In this document: one piece after another, positions 18,742 through 62,625 of the stretch
Layout of the letters: the number at the start of each line of letters is the position of its first letter
How positions within the stretch are numbered: the first letter of the stretch is position 1
Origin: Pocillopora damicornis
Lineage: Eukaryota
Direction of reading: 5' to 3'
Assembly (NCBI RefSeq): GCF_003704095.1
Contig: NW_020847344.1
Location: 355,696 to 419,695 of the forward strand
DNA length: 64,000 nt
Position numbers and translations under genes: made by a program
Notes under the pieces: model-generated
What the model was told of the DNA's origin: nothing
Databases searched by the model: none
Seen by the model: the letters and a program-made list of their open reading frames with translations, nothing else

Positions 18742-21505
18742 AGAGTATATCCTTAATAATAGTAAGGATAATATTATAGTTGGGTTCTGTTTTTATGTAT
18801 CTCATGCATGGTGATCAGATTTGTGAAAGAATTTGGAAAGCTGGTTTATTAACTTAGAACAGACTCCTTTTTGACAGATGTAAACAATTACCTGCACCTT
18901 ATAAACCTCTTATTTAGAACATCAACACAACTTTGCTGATAGTTTGAAACTGACTGACACTGTTTGGCTCTGACAACCAGATGAACAACGGCAGAACTGA
19001 CCAATCGGTTTTCACATACCAAACCTCCAAAGCCTTAACTGACAAACAACTCTTCACTTGATTCTAGAAAAGACATATGCTCATATTTTTGAACTGTCAA
19101 TAAAAAATTTCTCTCAGAATTGGTCTCACTCAGACAATTAGAGAAGACAAGCATAATTGGGTAATATAACTCCACTATGGTATATTATTTGATAAAAACA
19201 GTCAGTAATTGATTGAAGAATTAGTGCTCACTTATAATTTTTTTGTTAAGATCACTGCAAATCTGGTGATATCCAAGCTGTGTGTTAAAAAAGAGTTTGT
19301 CCATCCACTTCCCATGAATGCACCAACCATTGTGGAAAATGTTCAAGTTACACTTCTGGAGGCAAACCAGTAGGGACTACTAAGTTTGTTACTTATCACT
19401 TTAAAATTAATAAGATTACTTTAAGTGAAATATGTTTAGTAATTAAAATAATGACTCATAATGACTTAGATAGAAGGATAAAATCTGTTTTGAGTGGCAT
19501 TCTCAGCAAAACATGGCCTATATTTTTCATTGAACTTTTTTTTTTTCAGTTGCCCTGGAGCTGTATTGTTTGTGTTCCAGTTCTCTTCTGGCCAGACTTA
19601 CTTACACACAGGTTTAGCTTCATTTTGGTTGATATTTAATTAAGATACTTTTGCCACATGTGATATGTAAGTATTCAAAAATGCAATTGCTCTCATGACA
19701 TAACCAACCAATTGATGAACAATGTCATGTCTTGAATGTGACCCTGAACAGTCCATGACATCCCAGCTAAAGAATGTCAGTTTACAATCAAAGTATCACT
19801 TTCTACATCCCTTGTGACAACATTACCTGCGGAAGTTTCCTCAAGTACATTTTAAAGTATTACTTAATTTATTTTTAAGGTGACTTTCGAGCTTCTCCTG
19901 AAATGGAAAGGTATCCAGAGTTACATTGTAAGATTGATGTCCTGTACCTTGACACCACGTAAGTACATCTACACTGACATGTTTTTTCAATCTGTTATGT
20001 AATTACTGAATAATCTTCAGTATTTACAACTTGTTTTTTTAAAAACATTTCAGGTACTGTGATCCAAATTACTCCTTTCCTCCTCAAGAGGAAACCATCA
20101 ACTTTGCTGTTTCAAAAGCTGTGCAAGCATGCAAACAAAACCCAAAGACACTGATAGTTTGTGGCTCATATACAATTGGGAAAGAACGTGTCTTTCTTGG
20201 TGAGGACTTTTAAAATCTCAGTTTAATATATTTTTGTGAGATGGTATAGAGGAGAGAATTCTTAATTCAGACACAGGAGACTGCGATTCTACAATTTCAG
20301 CAGATATGAAGGCTTTGTGTGATAGTCACTTTTTAATAAGATCGAATTCAATTTTGTTGCTTAACTATCATAGGCACCAATAATTAAATGGGAACTGTTT
20401 GTTGATATTGTTTTGTGTTTATGTTAAGCCATTGCAGAAGCACTTGGATGTAAAGTTTGTGTAGAAAAACAAAAGAAAAAGGTTCTGGACTGTCTTGAAT
20501 CCAATCAAATAAATTCTCTGATCACTACTGACTGGAAGGTGGGAAGAATTCATGTGTTGCCAATGGCAAAGCTAACGCTGCAGGTAAAAGATGAATTTTT
20601 AGTGCTGAAATTGTATTTTTCACTTTCATGGCTAAGATAAAGCAACTTGAAATTTATTATTATGGTGGAAAACAGAACATGTATTCAGTTAACCCTTTAA
20701 CTCCCATGACTGATGAAGACTGAATTTCTCCTTACAATATCAATAAAATATCAAGTACACTAGTTATGAGGGTAAAGAAAAGTATTAATCAGGGGATTAT
20801 TAGTTGATCCAATACCCAATTTTCAGAGCTGATATTATAAGAATTGTGTCACAGACAGTAAGGAGAATTTGATGTTATGAGTGAAACAAATTCTGAACTC
20901 CAGATATTTTTTTAGATGTCTCTGCTGTGGTTTTATCAGTTGCAAAGTATTCAAATTAAAATAAGATACATATAGAAAGATGTTTAAGATGGAATATAAT
21001 TTAAAAGCATATTTTCATCATCAATTTTATTTATTGATAGAATCTAACAACATATTTGGGGGCTCATAAGTCACAGTATGCTGAACTCCTGGCATTTAAA
21101 CCCACTGGGTGGGAATACAGTGAAAAGCGAGAGGACTTGTTGATGATTAAACCTTCCAAGAGAGGAAATGTGACAATATATGGTAAGTACAGTGATATGC
21201 TGGATTTAACTTACTCAGCCCATCTTTTTTTTTTCCACCCAACTTCACTCCTCTCCTAAAGTCAGTTTTTTTCATTACTGACAATGATGTAGTTCCTAGG
21301 GTTTGTTATATTGTTGTTTTCTTCGTCTTTATGCTTAGGTGTTCCTTATAGTGAGCATAGCAGCTTCAGGGAACTGGAGAGATTTGTTAAGTTTCTTCAG
21401 CCAAAGAAGATCATTCCTACTGTTAATGTCCATTCCGCAGAAAAAAGGGCTCAGATGCAGGCCATCTTCAACAGCTGGTTATTGAAGGATTCCTTAAAGT
21501 TTTGA
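16380..21505 (+). CDS. DCLRE1A: DNA cross-link repair 1A protein (SNM1A/PSO2 family; metallo-beta-lactamase + beta-CASP nuclease); CDS join(16380..16863,17140..17297,17497..18594,19251..19369,19550..19611,19880..19958,20054..20199,20429..20583,21041..21182,21339..21505), ~869 aa
   Basis: Hand translation shows the MBL signature …[54 protein letters not shown]. After a GT-AG intron it continues …VHPLPMN…[68 protein letters not shown]…[40 protein letters not shown]…[21 protein letters not shown]…[16 protein letters not shown]…[45 protein letters not shown]…*. This matches SNM1A (HxHxDH, beta-CASP motifs, C-terminal IIPTVNV). All ten exons have GT donors and AG acceptors with consistent phases, and the total length is 2610 nt. 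The N-terminal exons carry UBZ-type zinc fingers ([23 protein letters not shown]; [20 protein letters not shown]). The start at ATG 16380 is the first ATG of the ORF, reached after a TTG the track labels 'M'. Confidence 0.85.
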
Positions 21506-32100: not shown

Positions 32101-35100
32101 CAGGGAAGAGATAAGACTCAAGTTATTGTTTACCGCTGCCCAGGATATACTGCTGTTCAGGTAATTCTCCTTTTGCTATCCATGAAAACATATTTACAAC
32201 ATTTCATAAGCCCTTAAATTTCCTCATACATGAAGAGAAATGCAATGAGAACAATATTTTTGATGTGCTTTTCTCAGGTGTACGACTATTTAAGGAAAAC
32301 TGCAAGAGTCATCTTTGGACCAGACCTGGTATGTAGAAAAGTGAATGATTTCCATTATAATTTATTGTTACATTATGACTACGATGATATGGAAAATGAC
32401 TGATAGGAGGCCCCAACCACTTTGATTCATCAGCAGTCTAATTACTAGCAATCACTCACTTGTTTATCCAGCACCTTTCTGGCTGGTAACATGGAATTTA
32501 ACCCTCTGACCCCGAAGAGTGATCAGCATCTAGTTTCTCCTTACAATATCATCTAGGAACCAAACAGTCTCTTTGGCTCAGTGGTTGGAGCATCAGAGTG
32601 CAGAATCCAAAGGTCTGAGGTTCGATTCCTCATGGGGACTCAGAATTTTTCTTTGTCCCATGCTCATGACCAGACAAAAAAAACCATCTTTCTCCACACA
32701 TTAAGGTCATGAGAATAAATGAGATCACCAACTAAAACAAATTCTCCTTGCCAGCACCTCAGAAAATGTAGACAGAACAGAAAAGAAAATATGCATACTG
32801 ATTTTAGGGTGGAAAGGGTTCTTGAAAGCCTCTTGTTCATTTTTGTGCTTTTTGTATTTCAGGTTGTACTTGGACCACATGAGAACTTCAATGTGCTTAG
32901 CTTGAGTGGTGAGTGAACTTTCTATTCCTTTTCTTTCACTTCAAAAACCTATGCCACAACAAAACACATAGTCTTTCTGTGTATTACACAAAATAATTTT
33001 CCTTCATGAGTAATCTTATCAACCTGTTGACTTAAATTACCAGCTGGGAAACCTAAGAAGCCAAACGCCTTGAAAACCATCTGTCTGATGCTGGGAACGG
33101 ATTTTATAACAGATATTATAGAGGTAGGCAGTTAGTGTCTGTGTATCACTTGGTCTGCTACGTTTTCCCGCGCTTCAGGTAATGTGCCTTTTTCCACTTT
33201 CTCATTGGCTACTGATAATGTAAATCTTTTTTCTGATTGGTCGTCGGGATTACTTTGAGTTTGGTTCTTCGTCACTCAATTGAAAAATGCTCTATTTCAC
33301 TTCATTTCCACTTGTTAATACTCATTTATTTTTATTGCAGGTGGAAACATCTGACCATGCTAGGCTTAAGATCAGAATTGCAATGAACAACTTCTTTGAG
33401 GTAATTTGGTTTTTGAATTCTCTTAAGACGTTCAGTTACTTGTGAGCCAATCATCTTTCAGAATCTGGGAGAAGGCTAACTTGGTTTGGTGTACTTTCAG
33501 GTCGAGAGAGGGAATAATGAGTCAGAACAGGCAATTTTTTCTGTCCCAGATTATATTGGAAATGCTTGCAAGAGTGTTGGTAAGATACAGTATTACTCTG
33601 ATTCAAAAAGATAAACCTAGCATTTCTTTAAAGGGCTTTTCCAATTGGTTAAGAACTAAAACTCTTCTATAGATAAGTCTCCCGCTCTTTCCCCACCCTC
33701 TCCGCCCACCATTTATTAAGCATAAAAATGGAAGGTATGTGTGTTAAAAGAAACTTGCTTTCTTTCTCCATATTTAGCCAGTAGAATCCGCGGAAAAGTA
33801 GCACAAGTAGCGTTTGATGAATTTCATCGCCATTCCACATCTCTCATTAAGAAGGCCGTGTTCGGAGTCGAGAAAGATGGAACAATCAAACAACGCCTTC
33901 GATTTGACGCTAATCAACTGGTAAGGGAATGAAAAGCATTCTTTGTCGTCAGTTGAAGTCGATTTCTTCTAAAATAATCTTATCGGGACTTTTTTAATCC
34001 TGTTAAGTTGTATCAAGACACATGAACGCTTTTGGCACAGAATTCCTTGTAAAATTGCTTGAAAAGAAGACATTTGACCTAAAAAAGGCAAAGTCTAGTT
34101 CTAGCTTGTTTTAATACATGAGGTCAAGTTACGAATGGAAAAGTAGGAGTTGTTTTCCTTTTTTTTTTAATCACCAGGTGGTAACTAATGTTGACATCCA
34201 AAGCATCGAGCCTGTGGATTTGCAAATGAGTGAAAGCCTCAGTAAATCTGTTCAAATGGCCATTGAGATTTCTACAAAGTAAGTTCAGCAACCTTCCTTT
34301 CCAAGAAGCAACTTTCTACGTCAACACCCTATGATTGACTAGCATCTAATTTCTCCTTACAATAATATCCCTTAATCAATCATTAAGGTCACGTGAAAAA
34401 AGAAATGATTACCGACTAATGGAGCTCTTGATTGTTAAAAAAATTCTCCTTGTCCACACTAAGGAAATGTATAGAGAACAGTATAGAGAATATACATAAG
34501 GATGTAAAGATGTAAAGGGTTAAAAGACGCTGACTGTAAGTGGGCGCTAGGTGAGCAACGAGCCGGTGAAGTGTATCCTAGTATCGCTAGCAGTGGATGC
34601 GATGGTTGTATAGTTGGTAGTGTAAGGAGAAAATGAAACTGACCATAGTAGAGTTTACATATCAGGTCCATTGAGCGAGCTGCTGAACATGAAGCTAAAA
34701 GAACAGAACAAATGGCGAAAGGATTGTTAGAAAGACAGAAGCTTACTAACGAGAAGGTTCGTGCTGTGAAGGAGCTTACAACAAAGAAAGGACCAGTTTA
34801 TTATAAACTTGTGTTACGCGAATCAGTGATGGTAAAGGGTTTAGAAGCTGTTTTATCCACATCCAGTATTGTGGCCTGGGTTCCACTCCCGATTCTCAAG
34901 ACTAGATTTTGTTGAGTTCAGGCGCTTAATCCGCAATTTCTCTTGATTCCATAGTCTTCTCCTGTGCACAAATATTATGGTGATGTAGAAAAATTCCATC
35001 TCTCTGGATATTTCTCTCAGGGCCAAAGTCAAATTTATGTTTTTAAACTTGCCATAGCACCGCTTATGTTTTTATTAAGTGTTTTTGTCAATAGCCATTC

Positions 35101-37535
35101 GCTCTGATGAAGGGCTAACGCTCGAGACGTCAGCTTTGAAACTCTTTGCGCTGGCCAATTTACGTTATCAACTCAGTTGATAATACTAAATTACCCTATT
35201 TTTCCTTTTACCAAGTTGTTAGGAGAAGGGCAATGGAGTTTGGAGGGGGTTGCTTCCCTTTAAAACCTTTATTGGGTCGGAGTGGATGAATTTACAAATG
35301 CATTTATAACTTGACGAATAGATTTATTACTTTATTACACCCATTTTGAAATCACTGGTGGTCCCTGTAATCTGATTGGCTCTAATCGGTGCGATTTATT
35401 CACGAATCACATCATTCTTTGCTTTAAATCACATCTTTTTCCCAGCTAATGAGAAGGCTACACTAAAAACAAAACAACCAATCAGATTTCAAGGCTTTTT
35501 TAAAGTAACCTATCAAATTTCAAGAAAATAAAAGACAAATAGTATCATGTGGCAAATTTTGCAACGTTTGTTTCTAAAACTCTTATTCCCCCCCCCCCCT
35601 AAAATGGATGAATTTAATTTCAAATCAGCTCAGTACTGCATCAATAAAATAATTGAACTGACCAAGCCTGTATTTGGGCGATTTCAAAGTGGATGTAATA
35701 AAGTGATAATTGGACCTCGTGTCGTGCAATTTTGGTCTGAAATCATACTTGTGATTTCAAATCACGCGTATGATTTCAGCCCAAATTGTACTCCACTCAG
35801 TTCAATAACCATTATTAATTATACTCATTTTTCATTGTGAAAATAGAAATGGTAATTAAAAACGTGTCTTTCTCATTAGGAAGCTGAAAATGCGCGAGTG
35901 AAGTTATTTGAACTGAGAGCGATTACTGCCGCAGTAGAATCTTCAGGACAAACTAAATCTGAGGCACAGGTCAGCCAACTTCATATATACCCACCCTTTG
36001 CATACATATTGCTAATTTTCTGATTTTGTGGGACTTTTCAGAATTCTTCATATGACGCTTCTTTCGATAATGTACAAGTTCGTGTTTGTTTGTTTCATTT
36101 CAACAACCTCTTCGAGATTTAAATCAACGTTACTGTAGTAACAAAATGTTCTTATTATTCCAAAAGGCTCAGGCAGAACGTTTGCTTATTGAAGGGGAGA
36201 GTGCAATAGAAGGTATAGACGAGTTTGGTCGTGGAAGTTGTGCTTTACTTACGAGTAGTGTACGGGGGCACTATGGTCTACAGGCAATCAGATGAGATTA
36301 TTTTGTACCACTTGCGTCATTTCCGCGCAGCGTAACAGTATTAATCCTTGCTTGACACTTAGGCATGACAAAGAGATTGAGTTATTTCAAATCACCATCT
36401 TTGAGGCCAATCCGGCCATATGAATGGTTTATTTGTACCATGTGGTACAAAATACTCCTCTCTGATTGGCTGTGTATCATAGTACCCCTGTATACCACTC
36501 ATACATTATAGAAAGTGCAGATATGTTTGATTCTAACGTAGCTTTTCCCGTGTGTTTAGTCGCTAAACTCAAAGCAGAAGCTGCTGAAGTTGAGCTACTT
36601 GCTGAGTTAGAATCTCAAAGAATGGTGAGTTGGAGGATAATTGATCAGATGCAACTGTAGCGGAATGCGTGTATATCTTATCATTTCTCATTCCTTATTT
36701 AAGGAGAAAGATGGGGAACTCGAACACCAGAAGCGACTTAATGAACTCGATCTACAGAAGGCCAAAGAACTGGCAGAAATCGAGGTTTGTAGCATTGTGT
36801 TCTGGCATCAATTTCAAAGTGGTCATGACTCGTATCAAGAGAATATTTATATCCTCGTGCTTATTTTCAAACTCGATCATTATCGTAGACTGACAAGTTT
36901 GCCGCCATGGTGGAAGCCTTGAGTGCAAAGACGATCCGTAAGATTGCGCGCTCTGGTCCTGAGTCAGAGGTGAGGTTTAAACTTTACACTGTTACGCTGG
37001 GAGCGTTTTAATAACAGCGGAGGACGGATGGAGATGATTTTGAAGATGTAATTATTTGGTTGCTAACCAATATCTTAATCTTCGATGTTATGTGCGGGCT
37101 TGTGTTCTTTTTATCTAAATTTTAATACCTTTATTCGTACTTTTTCCGCGCTTATCTTCGTTTATGACTTGGCGTGCTTTTCCCGCGCTTTTTACGGATC
37201 ACATGTTTTGGTTTGATTTGCTCCCGGTTACTTCTGTTACCGCGTGTGTTGTGACGATCACTTAAAAAAAATTGAAAGTATTCCACCACGAGTAAAAATT
37301 GATAAAATCTACCAACTTCTCTTAAGCGTGGTAAACATTGCAACGCAACGCGGTAAATGGAAAGATATGACCCGAACTATATAGATATGTATTCTTTTAT
37401 ACTCTGCCGTTTTATCGACAGGCCGGGCTCCTCAAGGGACTGGGAATACAGAATGTCCTCATTACTGATGGAAAAACGCCTCTCAACCTGTACCAGTCCC
37501 CAAGCGGCTTTTCCCAGCCGGCAATGATGAGCTAG
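26150..37535 (+). CDS. MVP: Major vault protein; 30 coding exons, CDS join(26150..26203,26837..26970,27070..27136,27248..27302,27481..27638,27770..27861,28606..28675,29298..29392,29619..29685,29817..29958,30214..30315,30737..30827,31406..31466,31547..31641,31835..31919,32104..32160,32278..32328,32863..32908,33054..33124,33341..33400,33500..33578,33778..33920,34178..34278,34666..34756,35880..35969,36167..36212,36560..36624,36704..36784,36889..36969,37422..37535), 2544 nt / ~847 aa
   Basis: The exon translations are collinear with vertebrate MVP. They run [18 protein letters not shown] / [44 protein letters not shown] / …[18 protein letters not shown] / [53 protein letters not shown] / …[23 protein letters not shown]. 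They continue …[20 protein letters not shown] / [47 protein letters not shown] / …[24 protein letters not shown] / [20 protein letters not shown] / [23 protein letters not shown]…, then / [17 protein letters not shown] / [15 protein letters not shown] / [26 protein letters not shown] / [20 protein letters not shown] / …[36 protein letters not shown] / [33 protein letters not shown]. The C-terminal helical exons end …[37 protein letters not shown]. Every junction has GT…AG and all phases chain to a 2544-nt frame. Confidence 0.9.
30572..30660. repeat. (GAT)n/(GAY)n trinucleotide microsatellite followed by a tandemly duplicated ~33-bp unit (ccctttt/tcaaa[tc]catgatgatgataac), MVP intron
   Basis: gatgacaatgatgacgatgatgacgatgatgatgatgataacccttttcaaatcatgatgatgataacccctttcaaaccatc. 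Confidence 0.7.
30876..30942. repeat. 23-bp tandem repeat x3 (TTGGGATGGTTTGAGACNTGACA), MVP intron immediately 3' of exon 12
   Basis: ttgggatggtttgagacttgaca ttgggatggtttgagacgtgaca ttgggatggtttaagacatgg. Confidence 0.7.
32556..32690 (+). repeat. tRNA-derived SINE-like element, copy 3 (…TGGCTCAGTGGTTGGAGCATCAGAGTGCAGAATCCAAAGGTCTGAGGTTCGATTCCTCATGGGGAC…caaaaaaaacc), MVP intron
   Basis: It has an A-box and a B-box GGTTCGATTCC with a poly-A end. It directly abuts a fragment of the TTTCTCCTTACAATATCA repeat family at 32496-32555. Confidence 0.5.
33140..33262. repeat. Dispersed element carrying E2F-like (GTTTTCCCGCGC) and NF-Y CCAAT-box (CTCATTGGCT, TCTGATTGGTC) motifs; copy in MVP intron
   Basis: Homologous copies lie at 60488-60690 (…CGTTTTCCCGCACAGTC…CTCATTGGCTCT…TCTGATTGGCTGT…) and 37135-37235 (…TTTTTCCGCGC…GCTTTTCCCGCGCTTTTTAC…). 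Confidence 0.5.
34318..34540 (+). repeat. Interspersed ~200-bp repeat family (core …GA(C/T)TAGCA(T/C)CTAATTTCTCC(T/A)TACAATATCA…ATTAAGGTCAC…AGAACAGTATRGAGAATATACA…); five copies in window
   Basis: Full copies lie at 34318-34540 (MVP intron) and 56498-56700 (intergenic). There is a diverged copy at 58360-58540 (DUSP11 intron 1), and 5' fragments at 20690-20800 (DCLRE1A intron) and 32496-32555. The copies align over >150 bp with ~75-85% identity. Confidence 0.55.
35280..35790. repeat. Inverted-repeat (MITE-like) element in an MVP intron with TGAAATCAC / GTGATTTCAAATCAC ends and an internal CTGATTGGCT
   Basis: Near 35335 is …cccattttgaaatcactggtggtccctgtaatctgattggctc…. Near 35745 is …gtgatttcaaatcacgcgtatgatttcagcccaaattg…. 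Related sequence lies at 36330-36470 (…atttcaaatcacc…ctctctgattggctgtg…). Confidence 0.35.
37135..37235. repeat. E2F-motif-bearing element copy (two TTTYCCGCGC sites) just 3' of MVP
   Basis: ctttttccgcgcttatcttcg…gcttttcccgcgctttttacgg. Confidence 0.4.
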
Positions 37536-40019
37536 AGACCGATAACGAGAGCTCAGGAGTACAGTACAGTACTCAGTAATTTTAAGGTGAACTTTCTTCG
37601 TCAATATGATAACAGACTGGTTTTAAACTGTAAGTTCTGTCTGTGCACTCGCACTTAAAAACAGTAATGGAACCAAAAAATAAAGGACTTAGATTTGAAA
37701 AAGAAAAAATATAAAGATTTAGAATCTTTGGTTTAAAGCATTGATTCAGCACACTAACCAATTGGAAAGTTCCTTTTAAAGATGGACGATTCAAATGGCA
37801 ATAAATAGTGGTGGGAAAAGATCTGTGTATACCTGCCGTGTGTATCACATTTTACACAGACAAGAGTTGTCGCCGGAAAGAATTAATGACATGAATAATT
37901 TAATAAATAAGATTGTTGATGGTTTGTCTTGTCATTTGCTGATTTTTCTATCGCCACCTAAACTGCAGCACGTTTATTACTGTATTTAATTTTTGTCGGC
38001 TTTTATGAACACTTTCCTTATCTGAATCTGAGAGACGTGAATTTGACATTTCAGACCGTAACTGAGTAATATTTTCTTTATAACACCTTGAAGGAGGATT
38101 AAACAACAAAAAAATCGCTTACTAGAACATTTCAGTTGAAAGAAGGGACCAAGAATATTCAGCTCATCTTTCCACACTGAGACAATTCCTTCTCTAATGC
38201 CTTCAGGAGCCTTTGCGTCAATCACACGCGAGGTAGCCGCGCGCGATAAAGTTCGTGCTCCGCATCACGTTTGTATGAGGTGTCGACGACAACATGTTGA
38301 AAAATACGTAAAAAATCCTCTGATGCGCACCAGATCCTTTTTTCCCCTACGGTCATATCAAACATTTCTTGGCTTTTATTTAAAGATTCGGTAAAAGACA
38401 TTCAATGTAGCAAAGAAAACGGTATTTTCTTATGGAAAATAACTGTAAATACAAATTGAGTAAGGAAGTAGTATATTTAAAGAAAGTAAAATTTTTCACT
38501 TATAGACTGATATATATCGAATTAGAGTGGATTGTAGAGTAATATATTATTGTATTGACTTATGGTCAAGCATTATTTTCAATGAAAGTTCCAGAATTGT
38601 CCGCTAAAACACGGGTCACCATTATTTATGATGATAGTTTGAAATTCAACCTGATTCATCGATTTTATTAGTTTCCAGGGTCTTATTTCAACTCTTTAGC
38701 GAGCTTAAAATAACTTACCTCCCATGAATACTTCATTATCTAAATTCGACTAACTTTACTTAATAGCATATGCCATGAAACCAAGTAGGAAAAATTGCCC
38801 GTGTAAACATAACTTGTTTCTCCTCAAACGAAACATTGCATCCACCCACAACTCAGATGATTTTCGGAGCAGACTTGACTAAACCGAGTGTCTTGGAAAA
38901 TTTGTTGCAATCGCCAGTTCCTTCATTTTTCTGGAGACCGCATGTTCATTTTGTTGTTTTATTCAGTGGAGTACTCACGATCGAAGTTTATAATTTTTCC
39001 CAAATCCTTTTTTCATTCCCTTACCCTTGCAACTAAGCGATTAAAAACCTAGAAACTCCATTTTTGGTGTTTAATACGAGGGTGTCTTGGTCGTGTTACG
39101 TTTATTTGACTACAGTGCTGGGTACTCCTCAGCCTTTTCAGATGTATCGGTGGAAAATCTAGAAGAAAAAAAAAGACGAAATACATTTAGAGAATTATTG
39201 AAATTGGTAAAGGTAGTGGCAACTTTGCGCTTAATTATAAGAGTAGTCGGATATACAGAAATAAAAGCAATAACTTTAAAATTGAGAAAAAGTTTTCATT
39301 GCAGCTGTTCCCGTTACGGGAATTGCTACGAATTGCAAATTTGCGTGCCGCCTTTTGTTGAAAAAGCGGAACATATCCCACGGTGTTTGGAGATTGGCAA
39401 TGGAGTATATAATAATAGCAAAATAGCCTTGATAAACTATTTTGGAACGAATTTCACTTTGCAGTTTATCTATATAGCATTACATGAGTTCTTGCAATAC
39501 AAAAAATACATCCGCTTTTACTGAATTAGTAAAATTTACAAGCCATTAACCATTTTTTCGTGATTCGGGGGGATAAATTTTTTTTCATTAGCGAACCAAA
39601 CGTTGTCATCTGCCTCTGTTTGATCGAGGTTCAAAACATCTGTCTCAACGTGAAGATTAACATACTGCCTGATTATCATAACTGACCTCTTATTTTTTTT
39701 CTTTATTTTTCTTTTTGTCGTCTAAGTAAAAGAAAATCGCATTTCAGTCGCAAGCTGCGAAGGAAGTCATCTACTAATCAGCTAAATTTGTGATATCGGC
39801 CAAGAATTGGTGTAATTCGGGATTTCGTTTTTACACAGCGTTCTAAGCAATATTTTTTCATTGACAATCTTTGTGAGGAATCCGCCAATCAGCAGATATT
39901 CAATTACAATGGGCTTTTGTTCAATTATTTTCCTTGACAACCGCACTGTATAATTGGGATCAAATGTGTCTCACTTGTCTGTGAGAACAATAGACTGTGG
40001 AGGGCGGCTTTGTTACCAA

Positions 40020-40330
40020 CTTCCGCCATTCTCCGCCATACGGCATGCTTTCAATTCCTAGAATTCTATTGGCTCACAGCGGAACAAAGCGCCCCACACG
40101 CAGAATAGCCACAAGGAAAACAGATATTGTTCCATTCGGCATTGTTCAAAGACGGCTTGGATTTCCACCATTTGTTTCTATTCCAGTGTTGAAACTTCGC
40201 CTCGGGACCACCAAGAAGGTTCCGAGTTGAAGATTTGCGTCTGAAATTCGAGCTCGCTAGTTTGTATAACTCGCGCGTTTTGCGCCTCGTGACGTGTTTC
40301 CTATTCTATCACGTGATTACAAGAAATGTC
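40020..40330 (+). promoter_or_regulatory. Putative Sox gene promoter / 5'UTR motif cluster: tandem YY1-like CCGCCAT x2, inverted CCAAT (CTATTGGCT), CRE-like TGACGTG, perfect palindromic E-box ATCACGTGAT
   Basis: ccgccattctccgccatacgg…ctattggctcacagcgg…ttttgcgcctcgtgacgtgtttcctattctatcacgtgattac lies immediately 5' of the Sox ATG at 40375. Confidence 0.4.
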
Positions 40331-49500: not shown

Positions 49501-52500
49501 CTGGGAAAAACTGACAGTGTTAGAGCTCTGGCACTTCTATTGGCATGAGGTTCGAAGTGGCTAGATGATCGTTTCCAGTAACCTGCCATTTCAAAAATGC
49601 TTTCAAGTGGATCCAAGAGACAAACTATGGATTGTGCTGTCTGTGTACCTGGGATGCTGTCTGTAAGTTCACTGTCCATGCGGCATTTGTCAGACAGACA
49701 GGAACCAAGAACACCACTGAAAGCTAATGAGAAAAAAATGCAATAACTTCAGAACTGTTCACAGTAGAAGGCAAGGTAGGAGAAGCAATTATTTAATTAA
49801 CTATCAGTTTCAAATGAAATGAAACCTAGTAATGAACAGATACAAGAACCTTTAGGACTGTCACTAATTTAATTGTGTGGTGCAGAGTTGCACATAATAT
49901 AGAAACTATTGCTACTTTTATTGAAGAGCTTTTAGGGCAATGTTTATGTGCACACAGAGAAGATCAGCAGATCTTAATCTTACCTGAATCCCAGCTTGAT
50001 GCAGAGGCCAGACAATGAAGATAGCAGCTTACAGCTTGAAGGGAACTAGTACCAGCTGGTGGCAAACAGCCTGTGAACAGAAAGGAAAAATAAAACAATT
50101 CTCCTCCTTTAAAATTTATATTTGGCTCACTACAGCCATGTGTGGAGCCATTTTATCATACATGAAACAACCAGTGAACATTATATTCAATAATCTGTAC
50201 AAACATTTCAAGAAATCATTCATGGAAAGGATAGAACAGGTTATGTCACCCAGAACTATACAAGGAAAAACTTTAATCTTCAACCAGCTAACACATTAGA
50301 CAAGCAGTGGACATGGTTCTACCAGGATCCACCTAGAAAAATAACTGCATTCATAATAAGCAAATTTTGCCTAGTTGCACTGTAAATCCAGCTGTTTAAC
50401 AACATCTCTTAGAATTGTGATTCAACCAAAAATGAATTAATTAACATTTTCAGCTCTACTGACAAAGCCAAAAGGCACTATGCAAATAACAAGCACAAAC
50501 AACAAAAATAAATAAATCTATTGCATCAAAATCAAGGGAAGATATAAAATAAAATCTAGATGAATTAAAAAATTAATTTATTATGATCATATTAAACATC
50601 AGGCCAAGCTTGCAGAAAAAGTACAAGCATGTAATTTTTCAGAAATGACTTCAAATGAATCATGCAACTTGATAAATAAAGCATTTCTTGATAAGGATGA
50701 ATCATCATATTTTTTGCGATGATATTGCAATGTAAATTAAAGGTCATTGTTCAATATAAATAAGGACCTATCCCCTGGACTATAAAAGGTAATAATTTAT
50801 TCTCATTTTGCATGAGGCAGAATTTCCTCAAATCAAACAAATTTCCATCATTACAGCTGGTGTATCCATTAACATCTTCTCACACAAAGACGATAAATAA
50901 AAAACTTCATGTTACTTTATATTAAAATTGTAACTTAATTTACATCTGCAACTTACATTCAAAAAAAGAAATTTAATTAATCCTGAGAGAAAAAAAGAGA
51001 AGTCTAATTTCTTTCCAGCTAACAATTACTATTTAAAAATCATTCACTTTTAAAATATTAGGTTTGCTAGTGAGTGCAGTGTGACGTCAGAAATGAGCTA
51101 TAAATTTTTGGCATTTTAAAACCGAAGTATTGACCAATTCATAGATGTAATTCATAGAGTTTGAAAAAAATAATAATCCATTTGTTGCAGACCAATCTTA
51201 ATTACAAAAAAATATGAGAGCAAAATCCTCACACTGATCAATTAAGGATTTGACCACAAATGTAAATTTTACAAAAGCAGTGATAGCTGATATGATAGAT
51301 ATCACTCAAGAACACCATATGCAGATACAACAAAATGTACATGATAGGATTTTCATTGGCATAAATGTAGGTTTTAACACAATGCTTAATTAATTACTAT
51401 TACATGAAGTTTTCAATGGCTTTAGACTCAGAGGGAAGGAAGTAACTAAAACTAAATTGATGTTTCCCCAAAGAAGGAAAAACAAAATATCTTGGGGGTC
51501 TTAAAAAAAGAGAAATTTATCCACTGTGAGGCCAAAATTATTTCCAAGTTAAGAAAAAAGTCATCTTTACACATCCATTCCTGTTTGAGAATATGAAAGA
51601 GGAGACTGATGGGTCTGTATACAAACAGTTTTCTGAGCTTTGATCTTTATTCAACAGCTGGAACAATTATGCAGAAAAAGGCAAGAAAAAGGTTTGGTAC
51701 ATTATAATGGCTTATAAGGCATTTTAACCATTTTCTACATTTATCACACATTTGGGTATAATTGCATACATTTCAAGCAAAAATTAATAATTTCTTCATT
51801 CAAGATAACTCAACAGTTTGTATTTTCATATTCTGGATAAACTGCTAGTAAAGGAAATGTTTTCCTCCTTGTTTTTTTTTCCCCTCTACTTTCTTATTCA
51901 AACCTTCCTTTACTTCTCAGATGTCCCCTGTACTCTTTCAAACTTACCTGACAGACGTAGTGACTCCATCATGCGAACAACAACCATCAAAAGAAAATCA
52001 GACCACAAGAACAATGGACCCAAGGCCACATTTTGCGTTAAGTTGCCTATAGATTCTTGATTTTCTGCCATCAGTGCCACCAGCTGCTCTCCAAAACTGG
52101 CCCAAAGCATGGTGCTATAATCATAATGTAACTGCTTTGTTGTTTCAGAGTCTAAGGGTGCGTTCCACTGAACACGCTTGTTGAGTCTGGGTGATCCTGG
52201 ACTTGAGCTGTGCCTGAGAATGCCATGACCCTCCTGATGATGCAGTAATGAACTTGTTGACCCTCCAGCCTCCTCAGCTGTTGATGTCCCCTGCAGATCA
52301 GCATCTTCACTCCTTGAACTTGAGGTCAGCTGCTCTAATGGCGGCAACTGAATCACATTTTTCCTCTCACCACTAACATGGCGGCTTAAGATAAGTGTTG
52401 TTGAGGTAGCAAGTTGTGATATTAAATTACTGAAAAATTTCTGCTCCTCTGAATCAAATGAAAGCAATGGAGAGTCTGGCTCGAGTTTCAGGAGTGGGAT

Positions 52501-53547
52501 TTGGTTGCGGCTTAACACTGACAACACTCCATTTTTGAGTGTACCTCCCTCAAGTCTTACATTCCCTCCAGTACATACCACCCCAAAGTCTTTCCATTCG
52601 AAGTTTGTAGCAAAGTCGTACTTTAACGTCCGAGTAACCTCCTGATGTTCGCTTACCAATTCATAAACGTGACCGGCCAAAATACGAGAACGTTCACAAG
52701 CAACGCCATTCAAAAGTTTGTTCAGTGACAATAAACAAACACTAGAAACAGCTGTAGTTGAAACTGCAGTTTCTCGACCCTTCGACTGCACAAAATTTCT
52801 AATCTCGCTCACACTTAAAAGTTCTCTTTCATCGCTCTGAAAATTTCTAGTGTACTCAAAAAGGCGATTGAAATCTTCAATTCCCTGGCAAACAGCACTT
52901 AAACCTTGCTGACTCAACCACCATTTGCATTTTTCGGCAAGGCGCAACACGCACGATAAAATAATTGAAATGAGCGATATACTCGTATCTGCTAATTGCG
53001 AGAGCGCTTTATTCACCACTTCCAAGTCCTCCAGCATGTCTGGCACACATTTGCGAAGCCATGGATCGGAAAAGATAAGTTTTCTTATCGCCAGTCGGTA
53101 CATACATTGTGTTTTTGCTGCATGGCAAATGTCGTGAAATCTTTCAACTTTGAATGGGAACTCGCTTGGAATTGGCATTTCACCATCTAAATAGGCCATA
53201 TACTTTTCCACTGTTTCTTCTAGCTCTTGTACAAACTTAGCGGAAGATTCAAGGCGTACCAGGCACTCTCTCGCCAAAACAATCTTTGAGCGATCAAGAA
53301 ATTTCTGGCCGATATCGGTGAAAATCTCGCACAAAGGAACACCTTGCTCAAAATGCCCAAAGCTGCCGGGAACATGTTGAGGTTTCAAGCACGAATTTCT
53401 GGTTAAACTTACACTTTTGAACGCTTTTTTGAGAGTCCAAATGTTCTTTTTTATGTCCGTTGGGGCAATTTGAGTAACAGAGAGTCTTTGGAAAGAGTTG
53501 TTGATGCCATCGTTGCTAGCGGCTGCCGAAGACGAGCTGAAATTCAT
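46591..53547 (-). CDS. Large conserved-looking protein of unknown function (~968 aa); proposed CDS complement(join(46591..47041,47436..47613,48827..48941,49248..49723,49984..50070,51948..53547))
   Basis: The ATG at 53547 is the first start after an in-frame TGA two codons upstream. A 1600-nt first coding exon (MNFSSSSAAASNDGINNSFQRLSVTQ…MVVVRMMESLRLS) ends at the classic donor tcag|gtaagt. Downstream open exon frames chain with consistent phases. They are (GCLPPAGTSSLQAVSCYLHCLASASSWDS; phase 1/1, optional or cassette, least certain), (…CLSDKCRMDSELTDSIPGTQTAQSIVCLLDPLESIFEMAGYWKRSSSHFEPH…LLQEQRSNLE, donor gag|gtcagt), (GLLKKSWVLFSRDLTKISTEFFQEAMPVGKSWKKSRHS, donor g|gtaaaa), (GIPHQRSQYVEHAVFQILEPVVESSMGLSFESRLNVLTLVVNTMMESWSDFILKEEIVF, donor ag|gtaaga) and the terminal exon RGSQQVKNLFSFSNQFHSFYGAQQLSLDFGYIKVWIASD…KGLLPFCLKVQEMK*. 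The total is 2907 nt. I could not recognise the protein family. Confidence 0.5.
48095..48594. mobile_element. Non-autonomous Tc1/mariner-type MITE (~500 bp) with ~26-bp terminal inverted repeats and TA target-site duplication, inside an intron of the 46.6-53.5 kb gene
   Basis: The left end is TA|CAGTCAAACCTCGATTATCCGGAC (48095…). The right end is GTCCGGATAATCAAGGTTCGACTG|TA (…48594), whose reverse complement is CAGTCGAACCTTGATTATCCGGAC. There are 24/26 matches and the element starts CAGT, as Tc1 TIRs do. It contains internal ATTATCCGGAC sub-repeats and has no transposase ORF. Confidence 0.6.
48651..48682. repeat. poly(A) tract (~24 A) in an intron, ~60 bp after the MITE
   Basis: ggcaaaaaaaaaaaaaaaaaaaaagaataac. 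Confidence 0.8.
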
Positions 53548-56497
53548 AGCCCTTCAAAAAGAACTAGGCTGCCCTGCTTTCTTCCTTCAGCGGCACAACA
53601 GATTGGCAGAAAAAGCATAATCTTGGTAGTAGGACGTCTAACACAGGACTGGTTCGACAATAAAGATCTACATGGTAATAAAAAAGTTTATCTGTTTAGC
53701 GTTCAGTCAGTGCCTGATCTACCATCTTTGTTGATAATAACAAACTTCATGCCCAGTTCATCCGCGCGCTAATCCACCGGAAATAGAAAATTCCTAATTC
53801 CAAAGAAAAATTTCAGAAACCATTTTCTACCTCCAATTCTCCGCCGAAATAACCTGTCATAAGGCTAGACTTTTTGACGAAGACGATGGAAGTCAATACA
53901 GAATTAAAAAGCTAAAAATGCAAATTGAAACCAAGCCGGGGGGAATAAAAGAAGCCATAATTAGCAATGAACGCCCTTAAAATAAAGGAAAGGTTTTCTT
54001 TCGTTCAACTTACATTTTAATGAGTTGTTTTCTGGTGATTCTGGGAGGGAGAGATCTTGCTTACTATCTCGGCCAAGGAAGCTTGAATAATCTTTGAATT
54101 CGCTATCGTTTAAAAAAAAAAGAATATTATACACGAAAAAACAAAGCGTCTAAAATTTGCCAACAAAGAGCAGCAACTACTTGTACAACATCGGCACGAT
54201 TTTTAAATGTCTTTCAAAAACTTCACCCTAAGATATGAATTAGTGGTCAATATAGAAAAGAAATTAATTGTGGTTAATAACCTCGAGCTCTATAATATGC
54301 CATTAACTACGCTTTTTCAAATTGAAAAGACTCGCGTCGATTGATCCCTTCCATTAAAACAGGTGTACGCGGATAAGCAAGGCGAGAGTTTGAATTCAGC
54401 AAGATGATGTGAGACACACCGATTTCTTTTACATTAACAGATTAAAATTGAATTCGATTGGAGCGGGAAAAAGTGAAGAGGTGGTCTCTAGGTGATGAAT
54501 CGATGCCAGTCCAATACAATGACCGGATGGATATTTCAAGAGCACGATGCTAAAAATAGACCTCAATAACCACCTGGTGACCATCCGTGCATAAAACACT
54601 TCAAAAACCCATATTTCATTTCTTTTCCTTTAATTTTCCCTTCGTTTCAAAGCGTAAAAAGCTGACCTACGCTCAGTCATAGAAAAAAAAGCTTCACTGA
54701 TTCAATGAAGCAACAATACACTAATATCGATTAGTTTATTTTCTAGTGTCACCCAGTTTTAGCGCTCTTTAACAATTCACGTGAAGACCATGTTTCCATT
54801 TGCAGTACATCCAGTTCTAAGATATATTGCATAACACTTTGCTGAATATTTCTGTGTTCAAAGAATAGCTCAAAGCAGAATTTGTTTTACCGTTCTATTT
54901 TGGTATGGACTTTGAACTAAGTCTGTATTGAGTTTCATCTCTGGGCCCGAATAGAATTATTTCTTTTTTTACTATCGATTGCAGATTTCTTTGAACCAAA
55001 AATTCAAATAAATTATCGACAGCTCGCAAAAATTGAAATGACTGGAACAAATTTCCAACGTATCTTAGGAGGAAAAAAAGCGAAGTACTCTTGACACCAG
55101 TAACACGAAATGAAACACTTAACAGCAAATTTGACATGAAAGTTATTACGAAGATCCAAGGAAAACGTCAAAATGGCAGAACCAGAGTTATGTGTATGAA
55201 CAACTGGACAATATATTATAAGTCGTTCCATTCTACTTTATTCATCATTGTATTTCCAACTCGGATCTATAATGCATCCATCTTCCCAATTATAGCAACG
55301 TGCCGCTTAAGACTGGTTTCAAATCATTCTGCTAATTAACATAATAAAGATTTTAACATGTACACAGCTGAACCTCACAAAAGTTATAGGGTAGAAGGTA
55401 AACAATTTTTTTTTTCGCCAGGTTTACCGTACGAGACTACACCGCAACTGCCATAGTATTGACAGTGACTGAGATAAAAATAGTGACCTCTTTTGGCTTT
55501 GACTCCCTGAGGTGAACAACTCCAAAGAGATTCGTTTACTAGTACAATTTTTTGTGCCGCGAACCAGAGAAAGGTTGCTCCATATTGGATGGAATGTCAA
55601 ATTTTAATTTTTTTTCAGGAATTCTTTTCACACTCAAATCATGTAGCTTTGCAAGTCTTATGGATGTATCTACCTATTTATACCAGTGAGAAAAGGTCGC
55701 TAAAACCCCAAATGTTCGGTGTGTTGAATAATTAGATTTAGAAAAAAAAAACATGAAACTAACGCTGCTGACATAGCACTACTGAATGGGTTGTCAAAGC
55801 GTTTGTGGTTCAGATGATCCATTAAGTATGAAGGATGAAAGGAACTGAAACAGATAACAGATTACTATTGTTTGTGTCCAAAAATTAGTAGGCTGGACTG
55901 CTTAAATTGCAATGCCAACATAACTAACTGCATCAAAACTACTCTGAGTGTTGTGAAACAATTGTTGTCATATAACAAAGTAACTAAATACAGTGAATAG
56001 CTTGACAGTAACCAGTGGCTAGTGGAAAGGGAGAGGGACACTGGTTCATAATGCTTTGGTATAGAGCTGTCAGTAAATCTTTCTGTTATAACAAACCAGT
56101 AAAAAGAGCACTTCTTTCATACAACAATGTAAAGGATACAGACTAAAGCTTATGGAAACGTATAAATAAACATCTTTAGCAAATAAATGTTACTGTTTTG
56201 AGTTGTGTCATACAAAAGGTTTCCCACAGCAAAAACAGCACATAAAGATTGAAATACCAATATATACAGTGAAATTTATTTGAATCATTGCTGTTGCTTT
56301 AAGTCCATGAATAATAAATTTAATCTTATCCATCCTCTTCATTTGGTAGGAGTTCCCAAATTCATTTTTTTTTTCCAGATGTCACAATTTTGTTTTCAAA
56401 TAAATGGAAAACCTTGATTTTCATACCAAGACTTTTCCTTGGAAAAATTAAAAAGGTCTAAAGTATTGTCTTTAAATAAGGCTAGAGCTCCACTGCA

Positions 56498-58214: not shown

Positions 58215-61200
58215 ATGAATACAGAGGTAGTTATTGACAAAAGGATACCTGATAAGTGAGTATATATTTTTATTACCTCTTTATATCAAAAGGAACTTTG
58301 ACCAAGTTGGTTTGTGTGGTGTTCTTCATGAGTCTTCAATCTTCCATTATAGATTGATTAAGTGTCTCCACACTTAATCACCCCTGAATCAAACATAAAG
58401 TCACGAGAGTAAATGAAATGATCACCAACTGTAGCAGCTGTTGACTGTTGATTAAATTTCCATGTCAGTACCTTAAAAAATGTGTCGAGAACAGCGTGGA
58501 GAAGATGCATACTGACGTTATGGTGTAAAAGGCTTAAAGAACGTCATCAGTCATTATCATCATAAAATGGAATGGTGTTATGCCTTTCTAAAAGACATGA
58601 CTATTATAAAAGATACCATAAAAACCATCTGGATATGAGAAGGAACTACTTTTTCAGTGAACTGTATCACGATTTAAGTAAGCTGGACCTGCATGCTACA
58701 AAATTGATAACTATCCACCTATGTAGAGAAAGATGTTTTTTTCGTCTTGTCACGAGCACGCTATCCTCCTATTTCTTGGATTAGTGGCATACTTCAAAGG
58801 GCTGAGACTCAAAAAGGCATCTTCAGAAACTTTTGACGGTGGCCAATTTAATTTGACGGTTGCCAATTCATTTGACAAAACTAAACTATCTTGTAGTGCC
58901 CCCCCCCCCACCAATGCAGCACCTCTTTTTCTTCATAATCTTACCCCCTTCTGACAAACCAAGTGGTCAAAAATGAACATATTTTTGTTCACATATAATG
59001 TTAAAAGACAGGTTTGTTTGATGTATTTTAAAAAAACCTTTTAAAACCCCTTGAATTTGTTAGGAAATGTTAAGATTGTTTGTCAGCAATGATCAGCAAT
59101 GATCAGCAATGACTTTGATTTATTTTATAACAGGTGGAGAGACTATAAACCATGTGGGGTACCCATACCAGGAGAGAGAATTATTGCATTTAAGACACCT
59201 TTGTCACATGTAAGGTGAAATAACAACATGTTAGTGATTTCTGAAATGAAGTATTGCTCATGTTGTCAAGATATCAGTACTGAAAACAATCACCAACTGC
59301 TGTCTTTTTTAGCACTACCCTACATCTTAGAACTGACAAGGCTTTGAATTTACTTCGAAATACTATCTTGTTGCAGCGATATGACAATGAAAGTGATCAA
59401 GACAATGGAATCAAACCGCATGAAAGGTAGGTACAGTGTTATTTACTAGACATGTGGATGCTAATTTTTTAAAATTTCTGTTCACATTTTTTCATCACAC
59501 ACTTTAAAAACTGCGCTTTCAATATCTTTCATCAGTTTTTAATCTTTTTTAAGGTTTACACCGATGGATCTGCTGAATTGCCTCAACCGAAAGCATATAA
59601 AACTTGGAATGGTTGTGGACTTCACTAACACTTACAGATATTATAATTACAGGGTATGTAGATCAAAGAATAATGTTAGCTTCTTTTTTTCATACATATT
59701 TTTCATACATTTAATACAGCAACTCTGTGGGAGGAAAAATAAGTTAAAGGTTATTGCAATGGTGTTCACATTGAAAGATCTTGAAAATTAGACAAGCTTT
59801 GTTGTTAGGCATCATGATTTCTACCAAAACAGTAATAGATTTATTGATCATATATTGTTAAAGGAGCTCTCTGACCATGGCATACTTCATTGCAAGATCA
59901 AATGTGTTGGAAAAGAAATTCCAGATGAAAATGTGGTAACAAGGTAAGGAATAATTTGATTAATGGAATTGGGATCTGGATAACTGTTCTTGGTACATTT
60001 AAAAAGCAATGTTACATTCTTCCAAAGGTTTAAGACTGAGGTCTGCAGCTTTCTGGATAAGAGGAGTAACCCAGGTGAGAAACATAATGGCGCAAACGGT
60101 TTACTCCTTTAGTCTGTTGAATCCCATATGATATGTTACCATCTTTAATTTTTCTCCAGATGCTGTTGTTGGGGTCCACTGTACTCATGGTCTAAACAGA
60201 AGTGGTTATGTAGTTTGTAGGTGAGAAGAAGTGACATACAATAGTACAAAAAGTGATTTCATTATGTGATTGGGAAATTCTATTTCAACGAAGAACAACA
60301 TTTGAGTTTCAACTGATGTAATGAATCCACTTGTTCATTTTAGATATCTTATTGAATGCAGAGGATACACCCCTGAAGAGGCTATCAAAGGTACAATAAG
60401 CTGTGAGGTCAAAGACAAAATCTTTTCAGATAACGCTACAATGAGTGTTACACAAGTTGAATAATCAGAGATTGATTCTCTTTTGGGTGACTTTGCTTTG
60501 TGATTGGTCCTGAAAACTCCCGCTACTCTCTCAACCAATCAAATTCAAAGCTAACACTACTACGACTTGGTCGCCCTCGTTTTCCCGCACAGTCGCCTTG
60601 TTTTACTTTGAGTTCTCATTGGCTCTCAAAGGTATTTTTCTTTCTTCTGATTGGCTGTTGTGGTTACTCCAGTTTTGGTTTTACGATATTCAATCGAAAA
60701 GCGCTCTACTGAGTAAACCTCTCATTTACCTAAAAGGAAAATAGCTATTTTCGCCGTCATCTCTTCTTTGACCAGATTGTTTCTGAAAGTAATCTGCTAA
60801 CTTTCTTTTTATTTCCAACCTGTTGAGACCTACTGTTGTGATGAATGAATTTAGAATAACACTTAGAAACTTTTTTTGTTCTTAATTACTTTTCCAGCAT
60901 TTAATAAAGCTCGAGGACATGATATGGAGCGTGAGAATTACCTGGAGGATCTTCATAAAAAAATCCCCGAATTGTGAGTAAACTATTCAATTTCTTTTTA
61001 CACGATTTTGTTACGCTAAGATAAATGCACGTCACAAAGTAATGTATGGCAAGCCACTTCCTGCATACCATTTAAATTTGTATGAAAATTTGTCACTTTT
61101 AATAGCGATTTCACGTCTTTCGTTCGTGTTGGGGATAACCGGAAACAGGACGAAATTCAATTTGACAGACCAAGACATCTCCATACCAACTCAAGATATG

Positions 61201-61676: not shown

Positions 61677-62625
61677 AACTAAAAGGTCAAGGTTCATTAT
61701 TATTTTTACTTCAAAGGGCTTAGATGATCTAGTGTGCCGTGATGGGTTTCCTAAGTCATGCCACCTTCACGAACGATCAGATTCAAAACTAGAATCAATC
61801 GCGACTTGTTTCCATTCCTTTCACCCAGCTACAGGTAGTTGGTTAGTTGTTGCTTCCAGTCATTTGGATTACTTCTGGTTATTGCTTTTCGACAGCGCCC
61901 TAAGATTCGTGTATTGCAAGCTACCACATTTTAATCGAAAAAAATTTTAATCGCTCAGTTATACCTTAATATTAGTCTTTTTACTTTAAACAGTTCCCAG
62001 TTTAGAATATAAGCTGAGTTTTTCAATAGAAAACTGTCACGACGTTGAAAATGATTTTTTTAGTGCTAGTAATAGGTGAGGATGCTTTGATATCTTAAGA
62101 TTTTATGATATGTATCTTATACTTAGAGGTGGAGTGGAAAATATAGCTGAAAACCGACCAGAGTAATTTTATTTAAATCTGTATAAATACGTTTTCAAAA
62201 GGATTGGGTATGAGAAAGAAAAAAGCTAACAACTATTTTCCCTCTGAAACGCTAAATTCTTTGGACAGATGCAGTCACCCAGATAAAAAGAGAATTACTA
62301 ATTAAGTCCTCAAGACAGTTTGAAAAATTTACTTCTGGTCTACTTGCTCTGATTTTGGTTATTTAAAAACAAAGCTGACATTTTAGAAGTGATGGAACAC
62401 TTAAAAACATTTGAACAGATGACACTGAAATACAAACTGGCAAAAAAATTACAGGCAACGTAGCTTTATACATTTGAAATCAATACTGAAAGGGCTGGTG
62501 TACTCACGAACATGGAAAGCAGAGTATTCTTTGACTATTATATGTTTGATTATTATTAAAAGTAAATTACTAATTTCAAAGTCTCGGGCACCGCTGCGGA
62601 GCCTTTCGGGTATACAATGTGACTG

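Follow-up and report, generated by a model that had tools for sequence, protein, structure and literature searches.

In a 64,000-nucleotide stretch of Pocillopora damicornis DNA (RefSeq assembly GCF_003704095.1, contig NW_020847344.1, positions 355,696–419,695 of the forward strand; hereafter the window), a sequence at 33.1 kb that combines an E2F-like site with NF-Y-type CCAAT boxes is, at a probability that we put at about 0.85, an old copy of a high-copy nonautonomous DNA transposon of scleractinian corals, that is, a miniature inverted-repeat transposable element (MITE). An earlier note on this DNA had described it as one of at least three homologous copies (33140–33262, 37135–37235 and 60488–60690) of a dispersed and possibly mobile repeat bearing these motifs. 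A mobile-element repeat with an E2F-like site and CCAAT boxes is borne out by terminal inverted repeats (TIRs), sharp ends, unrelated flanks and more than 1000 copies called as open reading frames (ORFs), and the motifs do belong to the repeat, being present in the family consensus and forming its best-conserved internal columns. The list of copies had to be revised. Those at 33.1 and 60.6 kb align well beyond the short motifs, whereas the one at 37.1 kb gave no BLAST alignment and is at most a borderline relic; the 60.6 kb copy extends over ∼60427–60708 according to the family hidden Markov model (HMM) and terminus alignment; and a further copy at 61733–61869 (E = 5.6e-23) had been left out.

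Self-BLAST of the window aligned 33148–33294 with 60565–60708 at 68% identity over 154 nt (E = 3.4e-12), and nhmmer aligned the same pair at 61% over 158 aligned columns with a single 3-nt gap. Both copies contain GTTTTCCCGC(G/A)C, then CTCATTGGCT and then TCTGATTGG, with a spacer of 21 nt between the CCAAT boxes of the latter two. The region 37135–37235 gave no alignment with the other copies in self-BLAST and an E value of 3.1 with a two-copy HMM. No further copies in the window were found by nhmmer with this two-copy model; a family-level model built from external copies did find some. The copies and their principal motifs are as follows.

33148..33294, + strand: 5'-truncated copy, 3' half (HMM 126–275, E 1.5e-29, 77% to consensus)
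37165..37217, + strand: borderline relic (HMM 124–181, GACTTGGC...TTTTCCCGCGC..., 7.3 bits, E 0.048 window-wide)
60427..60708, + strand: near full-length copy, ∼282 bp (HMM 7–275 at 60440–60706, E 1.7e-63, 79% to consensus)
61733..61869, + strand: internal fragment (HMM 54–193, E 5.6e-23, 69% to consensus)
33162..33173, + strand: E2F-type site GTTTTCCCGCGC of the 33.1 kb copy
60579..60590, + strand: E2F-type site GTTTTCCCGCAC of the 60.6 kb copy
33202..33242, − strand: NF-Y-type CCAAT pair, AGCCAATGA at 33202–33210 and GACCAATCA at 33234–33242, 32 bp start to start
60501–60509 (−), 60533–60541 (+), 60616–60624 (−) and 60648–60656 (−): four NF-Y-type CCAAT boxes of the 60.6 kb copy

The 60.6 kb copy lies within an intron (60391–60897) of a DUSP11-like gene. 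Its 3' TIR is intact (60685–60708, ...TTCAATCGAAAAGCGCTCTA) and its 5' TIR is decayed, with a remnant CAGATAACGCTACAATGAGTG at 60427–60447 that was matched by eye to TAGAGCAATTTTCAATTGAGTG. The 33.1 kb copy occupies 68% of a 217-nt intron (33124–33340) of a gene resembling that of the major vault protein (MVP) and retains the E2F-like site, both 3' CCAAT boxes and the 3' TIR (33272–33294). The 37.1 kb relic sits in the last MVP-like intron (36970–37421). Its E value is 3e-4 if it is scored within that intron, and the best of ten shuffles reached 5.6 bits; it has kept the E2F-like site (37177–37188), has lost the CCAAT boxes and has a second TTTTTCCGCGC nearby (37141–37151). In the 61733–61869 fragment every CCAAT and E2F motif is mutated. 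The earlier placement of the motifs mostly in introns holds for the three other family copies; this fragment begins 57 nt beyond the stop codon of the DUSP11-like gene. All four copies are sense to their host genes.

Anatomy and dispersal of the family

Full-length copies are ∼283 bp long with their termini (nine are full length, spanning 262–278 bp by HMM) and correspond to the 285-bp family consensus TAGAGCAATTTTCAATTGAGTGTCGAAAGTAATCCGGGATTGCATTGGTTTTGCTTTACTTCGCTCTGTGATTGGTCTAGAAAACTCGCGCCACCCTCTCAACCAATCAGATGCAAAACTAAAACCAATCGCGACTTGGTCACTCGCGTTTTCCCGCGCTTCAGGCCGTTTGCTTGTTTTTACTTTGAGTTCTCATTGGCTCCTTGTGATATTTACCTTTGTTCTGATTGGCCGTTGTGATTACTTTGGTTTTGGTTTTACGACACTCAATCGAAAAGCGCTCTA. Their boundaries are sharp. 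The termini are imperfect inverted repeats of 23–29 nt, TAGAGCAATTTTCAATTGAGTGTCG...CGACACTCAATCGAAAAGCGCTCTA, common to copies from different loci and assemblies and complementary, for example, over 29 nt at 86% (locus L088) and over 23 nt at 87% (L087). As DNA, the element folds into a long hairpin (z = −6.0). It thus has what characterizes a MITE: a small and uniform size (below ∼800 bp), TIRs common to the copies, no coding capacity and many dispersed copies. TA is found at the 5' terminus in five of eight copies inspected and at the 3' terminus in eight of 11; because TA occurs at both ends of most well-preserved copies, the superfamily is probably, and provisionally, Stowaway/Tc1-mariner-like. 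A 3-bp (TTA/TAA) or longer target-site duplication (TSD) was not consistently present in the aligned flanks. The element would have been mobilized in trans by a cut-and-paste transposase recognizing its TIRs, most likely of the TA-targeting Tc1/mariner type. A repeat library may already contain the family without a name for it.

The consensus has an open frame of ∼95 codons, which is accidental, and a 70-aa ORF that runs by accident through the 60.6 kb copy (60500–60709) served as the probe in a search of prokaryote-style ORF calls on coral contigs. It matched 222 cluster representatives (50% clustering) at E ≤ 1e-3, most of them over the full query length. The aligned ORF consensus reads ...RAIFNWVSKVIRDCIGFALLRSVIGPENSRH.LNQSDAKLKPI.TWS.AFSRA...FTLSSHWL...FLLIG.CDYFGFGFTTLNRKALY; the similarity ends abruptly on both sides, on one of them at the 3' end of the element. 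A profile of these ORFs found 1192 clusters (90% clustering) at E ≤ 1e-5, nearly all from coral-type assemblies of ENA. Among the 120 listed of these there was no Pfam domain, and all 120 are translations of other copies. More than 1000 spurious protein clusters in public catalogues thus arise from this open frame in coral contigs (window 60500–60712). Two to four tandem matches to the CCAAT-bearing segment occur within some of the matching ORFs (P0014, P0100 and P0064), which suggests internal tandem amplification in some copies.

The loci of the ORF matches were fetched and searched iteratively with nhmmer, giving 19 non-redundant DNA copies in ∼214 kb. Copies from the independent loci L078, L079, L087–L090 and L092 align over their entire length but not in their flanks, which are unrelated, and the contexts themselves are unrelated (PLC, ZP-domain and ankyrin loci, among others). 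The flanks of the fetched loci held seven extra copies in ∼107 kb and the window holds four in 64 kb, or ∼6 per 100 kb. The distribution is locally clustered, with five copies in 10 kb of a PLC-like gene (L079, 9990–19560) and three in 5 kb elsewhere (L087, 9990–14650).

The sense orientation seen in the window (4/4) recurs in the L079 PLC-like gene (4/5), after the ZP-domain exons of L090 (2/2) and in the copy of L001, a locus of another coral; overall, ∼10 of 11 scorable copies are sense when the orthologous pair described below is counted once, in a sample that is small and partly clustered. Such a bias could come from selection on splice signals or on antisense transcription.

Motif content and conservation

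Six CCAAT/ATTGG pentamers in mixed orientation (HMM 35, 62, 94, 116, 186 and 218) occur in the consensus, five of them in the NF-Y form RRCCAATSR, together with one central E2F-type site (TTTTCCCGCGC, with TTTCCCGC at HMM 141). TTTCCCGC, which fits the E2F consensus TTTSSCGC, is present in ten of the 16 copies that cover the site. Adjacent boxes that share a side of the E2F site are spaced at 27, 32, 22 and 32 bp, in every case above the minimum of 19 bp between boxes reported for double NF-Y occupancy (PMC4889920).

The motif columns are better conserved than random internal blocks of the element (identity 0.885 versus 0.805 ± 0.034, P = 0.005), also among diverged copies only (0.817 versus 0.717, P = 0.007), in a test that covers 19 copies from several species with subfamily structure. 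The TIR columns are conserved to a similar degree (0.869). In the ORF alignment, the near-invariant residues map to the CCAAT boxes, the E2F site and the TIR.

The motifs are commoner in the window than chance would give. Six exact sites of the extended motif YCTGATTGGYT were found (0.20 expected; none of 100 shuffles reached six), together with 17 RRCCAATSR sites (9.0 ± 3.2 expected) and four TTTCCCGC sites (0.88 expected). The ten or more occurrences of YCTGATTGGYT that the earlier note had counted are reached only with the looser pattern [CT]T[GC]ATTGG[CT][CT], which has 11 sites. The MITE family makes up 0.94% of the window yet contains six of the 17 RRCCAATSR sites and three of the four TTTCCCGC sites, and the remaining 11 RRCCAATSR sites correspond to chance expectation. 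Over the ∼214 kb of coral DNA, a sample biased toward loci that contain a copy, RRCCAATSR occurs at 11.3 sites per kb in the family versus 0.22 in the rest and TTTCCCGC at 2.9 versus 0.02, so that about half of the NF-Y-type sites and three quarters of the TTTCCCGC sites fall in 2% of the sampled DNA. A scan of metagenome contigs for the exact arrangement CTCATTGGCT-N20-22-TCTGATTGG returned 70 matches, none with the flanks of the element and mostly with a spacer of 20 or 22 rather than 21 nt; that collection evidently does not contain this genome.

Genomic setting and other motif-bearing sequences

The window has a GC content of ∼36% and introns of the GT-AG type. Translations of its ORFs and exons identify an F-box/LRR gene, an SNM1/DCLRE1-like gene, a cyclin exon, the multi-exon MVP-like gene (+ strand, ∼29.8–37.5 kb), a single-exon Sox gene, a 545-aa ORF with no assigned function (51910–53547), the DUSP11/RNGTT-like phosphatase gene (+ strand, ∼59.1–61.7 kb, stop codon 61674–61676) and an ABC transporter gene. 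The MVP exon peptides match exon-sized ORFs of coral metagenome scaffolds (Tara Pacific) and of large ENA contigs, in which the cyclin–MVP synteny is kept. The 545-aa ORF has exact matches in Tara Pacific coral metagenomes (164 index blocks), from which the source was taken to be among the reef corals that this expedition sampled. The MVP-like and DUSP11-like genes are on the same strand ∼22 kb apart, a linkage that may be coincidence. Mammalian DUSP11 works on 5'-triphosphate Pol III transcripts, vault RNAs among them. A connection of the copies with vault or Pol III RNA genes, considered in view of these two hosts, was dropped as the copies gave no Rfam match.

Two other corals (L001 and L003) lack the 33.1 kb copy in their orthologous introns. 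The L001 intron orthologous to the last MVP intron holds a significant copy of the family (19897–20048, E = 1.1e-21), and this makes the 37.1 kb relic more credible. The relic and the L001 copy are 69% identical over 86 nt (E = 3e-7), have common departures from the consensus and both retain TTTTCCCGC (window 37177–37188). On these alignments, the 37.1 kb relic is probably an insertion older than the split of the two coral lineages. The absence of the 33.1 kb copy from the orthologous introns, together with the loss of all motifs from the 61733–61869 fragment, speaks against these copies being MVP enhancers conserved from ancient times.

Only one of the six exact YCTGATTGGYT sites lies in the MITE family; the motif sites across the window come from at least two repeat families, one hairpin element and some promoter-like sites. 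The pair at 35371/35476 belongs to a second dispersed family (35371–35486, possibly continuing to ∼35830) with 43 ORF clusters at 62–88% identity. It carries an inverted pair of perfect NF-Y-type boxes, AATCTGATTGGCT and AACCAATCAGATT, and a ten-residue CCAAT-encoding segment (...CAACCAATCAGA...) that is invariant in the ORF alignment. Beside it, a palindromic piece at 35696–35817 matches L003 (7943–8073), L090 (14729–14878) and L079 (9906–9969). The site at 36461 is in a separate element of an MVP-like intron, with a 65-nt inverted repeat (36250–36314 and 36439–36503, 78% complementary, 124-nt loop) of which one arm has TCTGATTGGCT and the second GGCAATCAGATG, a decayed partner. It has the look of one more hairpin or MITE-type element and had no relatives in the sampled coral DNA.

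The remaining sites look like ordinary promoter boxes and gave no repeat match in the sampled DNA. At the start of the window (635–681), an inverted CCAAT pair 36 bp apart (635/671) is followed by TGACGTC, which resembles a cAMP response element; two further CCAAT boxes (39878–39890 and 40068–40080) lie 230–420 bp upstream of the Sox ORF. In addition, TTTTTCCCGCTCCAATCG on the minus strand at 54455–54475 is an E2F-like site abutting a CCAAT box, ∼900 bp upstream of the 545-aa ORF.

A repeat family distinct from all of these begins with TTAA followed by CCCTTTAACTCCC... and is represented at 20689–20742, 32498–32818, 34314–34519, 56499–56706 and 58454–58532. Its TTAA flank and CCCTTT-type end are like those of piggyBac-related coral elements (AmiPB2 TIR; PMC2872659). 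The 32.5 kb copy includes a tRNA-like segment at 32567–32641 (Rfam tRNA, 34.6 bits; odd four-base anticodon by ARAGORN), and the family may be either a short interspersed element (SINE) or a piggyBac-type MITE built around a tRNA-like core.

Interpretation and significance

Several points weigh against the description of the family as a Stowaway-like MITE with a cluster of host-factor sites. A clean empty site or insertion polymorphism was not seen, the L001 and L003 introns being too diverged for a precise empty site, and no autonomous partner with matching TIRs was found, the metagenome DNA scan having returned unrelated sequences only. The superfamily assignment is provisional because TA may be the end of the TIR rather than a TSD. 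The tens of thousands of copies per genome to which ∼6 per 100 kb would roughly extrapolate derive from ∼200 kb of DNA and ORF counts. The excess conservation of the motif columns may come from constraint on the master copies and not on those inserted. Short internal direct and inverted repeats enclose the CCAAT boxes, an arrangement also expected of subterminal repeats that bind a transposase. Finally, the consensus has no cell cycle genes homology region (CHR; TTYGAA, searched as TTTGAA, TTCGAA and TTCAAA) and the copies in the window are intronic or 3' of a stop codon and not upstream of a transcription start site (TSS), so that the analogy with cell-cycle promoters covers motif content only.

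As to the meaning of the motifs, we lean towards the explanation that those of the consensus would bind host NF-Y and E2F, at somewhat better than even odds, because the same extended AACCAATCAGA recurs in a second, unrelated repeat family, which points to a host factor and not to a transposase specific to one family. The cluster may then have benefited the element or its autonomous parent through open chromatin or through expression in proliferating cells, and potential NF-Y/E2F sites would have been scattered through introns as a by-product of transposition. A less probable, though substantial, alternative keeps the MITE and takes the motifs as transposase-binding subterminal or internal repeats, or as leftovers of internal duplication, with an incidental likeness to NF-Y and E2F sites. 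The boxes do lie within short repeats (TGATTGGTTTAGA and TCTCAACCAATCA, and GTTCTGATTGG and GTTCCGATTGG at 32 bp), and a requirement of transposition would conserve the motif columns equally; the TIR columns have a similar value (0.869). However, five of the six boxes fit RRCCAATSR beyond the pentamer, their orientations are not mirrored between the halves of the element in the manner of transposase sites of the inverted repeat/direct repeat type, the second family has the same AACCAATCAGA in a different sequence, and the spacings all exceed the double NF-Y minimum (PMC4889920). It is doubtful that the family is a portable directional promoter or enhancer, dependent on NF-Y/E2F, that corals have co-opted on a large scale. 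If it were, thousands of intronic loci would be tied to a proliferating-cell or stem-cell programme, the sense bias would reflect selection against antisense transcription from the element, and, by means of the module, the parent transposon would have linked expression of its transposase to S phase. A regulatory effect of the decayed window copies on MVP, DUSP11 or any other gene is unlikely and would more probably be absent than present.

Explanations that dispense with a DNA transposon fare worse. The arrangement of an E2F site with two CCAAT boxes 32 bp apart resembles promoters of proliferation genes, and the 37.1 kb relic and the L001 copy share both an orthologous intron and TTTTCCCGC; one could therefore regard the copies as host cis-regulatory modules (intronic enhancers or alternative cell-cycle promoters of MVP and DUSP11) that are alike through the needs of their factors or through local duplication. 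We consider this very unlikely given the TIRs, the sharp common ends and the more than 1000 copies in unrelated contexts, the lack of the 33.1 kb copy in the orthologous introns, the motif-less 61733 copy and the missing CHR; a duplicated host promoter in particular was rejected on TIRs, copy number and unrelated flanks. That the family is instead a tRNA-derived SINE or a solo long terminal repeat (LTR) is highly improbable. It is short, abundant and frequent in introns, has LTR-like promoter motifs and is preceded, 330 bp upstream of the 33.1 kb copy, by a tRNA-like repeat of SINE type, but that repeat is a separate family with different ends (TTAA then CCCTTT...), and the tRNA-like segment recognized by Rfam and ARAGORN is found only at 32567–32641, outside every copy. 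The family also lacks a tail of A-rich or simple-repeat type as well as TG...CA ends with a 4–6 bp TSD, and its ends are inverted repeats of each other. Lastly, short motifs in 64 kb of AT-rich noncoding DNA may recur by chance, and the third copy listed earlier is near noise. As an account of the similarity and motif counts as a whole, chance is nevertheless negligible against a pairwise E of 3e-12, E values from 1e-23 to 1e-63 with the family HMM (best shuffle, 5.6 bits) and motif counts far above those of shuffles.

Among known elements, Stowaway-like MITEs are the closest in form: the coral family has the same kind of length (∼283 bp), TIRs (23–29 nt), TA ends, noncoding and uniform sequence, high copy number, frequency in introns or near genes and strong hairpin potential. 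It differs in an internal region unusually rich in consensus NF-Y sites and in that its TA may not be a TSD. The Acropora CMITEs are also coral MITEs with a notably conserved internal region; they are ∼100 bp long, with TTAA TSDs, piggyBac-type TIRs (CC[C/T]T...) and a conserved 60-bp internal consensus AGGGGTTCCCCATTGACGAG... (Wang et al., 2010, PMC2872659). Membership of this piggyBac-type group was rejected for the present family, whose termini read TAGAGC...GCTCTA and whose internal sequence bears no relation to the published one; it is the TTAA-flanked repeat of the window (CCCTTTAACTCCC...) that resembles the CMITEs.

Transcription-factor motifs have been multiplied by transposons in other organisms. 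In plants, MITEs multiply such motifs, and those of Brassica amplify E2F motifs (Morata et al., 2018, PMC5950925); an NF-Y CCAAT motif is part of Youren, a MITE of rice (PMC9314911). In these cases, as here, a host-factor motif in the consensus is carried across the genome. The coral family is distinguished by its cnidarian host and by the combination of E2F with multiple NF-Y sites in one element. NF-Y binds CCAAT-rich mammalian LTRs (LTR12/ERV9, MER and RLTR10 families; PMC12065363, PMC4889920), which likewise have consensus CCAAT arrays at spacings compatible with the binding of multiple NF-Y; their boxes, however, are part of a functioning retroviral promoter, whereas the coral element is a TIR element without a known need for a promoter.

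Cell-cycle gene promoters (E2F with a double CCAAT box, or a cell cycle-dependent element with a CHR) are similar in motif content and in the fixed 32-bp spacing of the two 3' CCAAT boxes, and differ in that the family is not at a TSS, has no CHR, and has six pentamers of mixed orientation within a TIR repeat. In G2/M promoters the CCAAT boxes have a spacing of 32–33 bp. In human chromatin immunoprecipitation data, double CCAAT boxes peak at spacings of 19, 24–27, 36 and 43 bp.

What is real here is a repeat of a fairly ordinary kind, a MITE family with an NF-Y/E2F cluster, represented in the window by old and mostly intronic relics. For the MVP and DUSP11 genes, there is no sign that the copies are anything but neutral relics in introns. 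Should NF-Y and E2F bind these motifs in vivo, a single MITE family would account for much of the supply of consensus sites for these two proliferation-linked factors in a reef-coral genome. This would matter for motif-based prediction of promoters and enhancers in corals and would provide an animal counterpart to the amplification of E2F motifs by plant MITEs.

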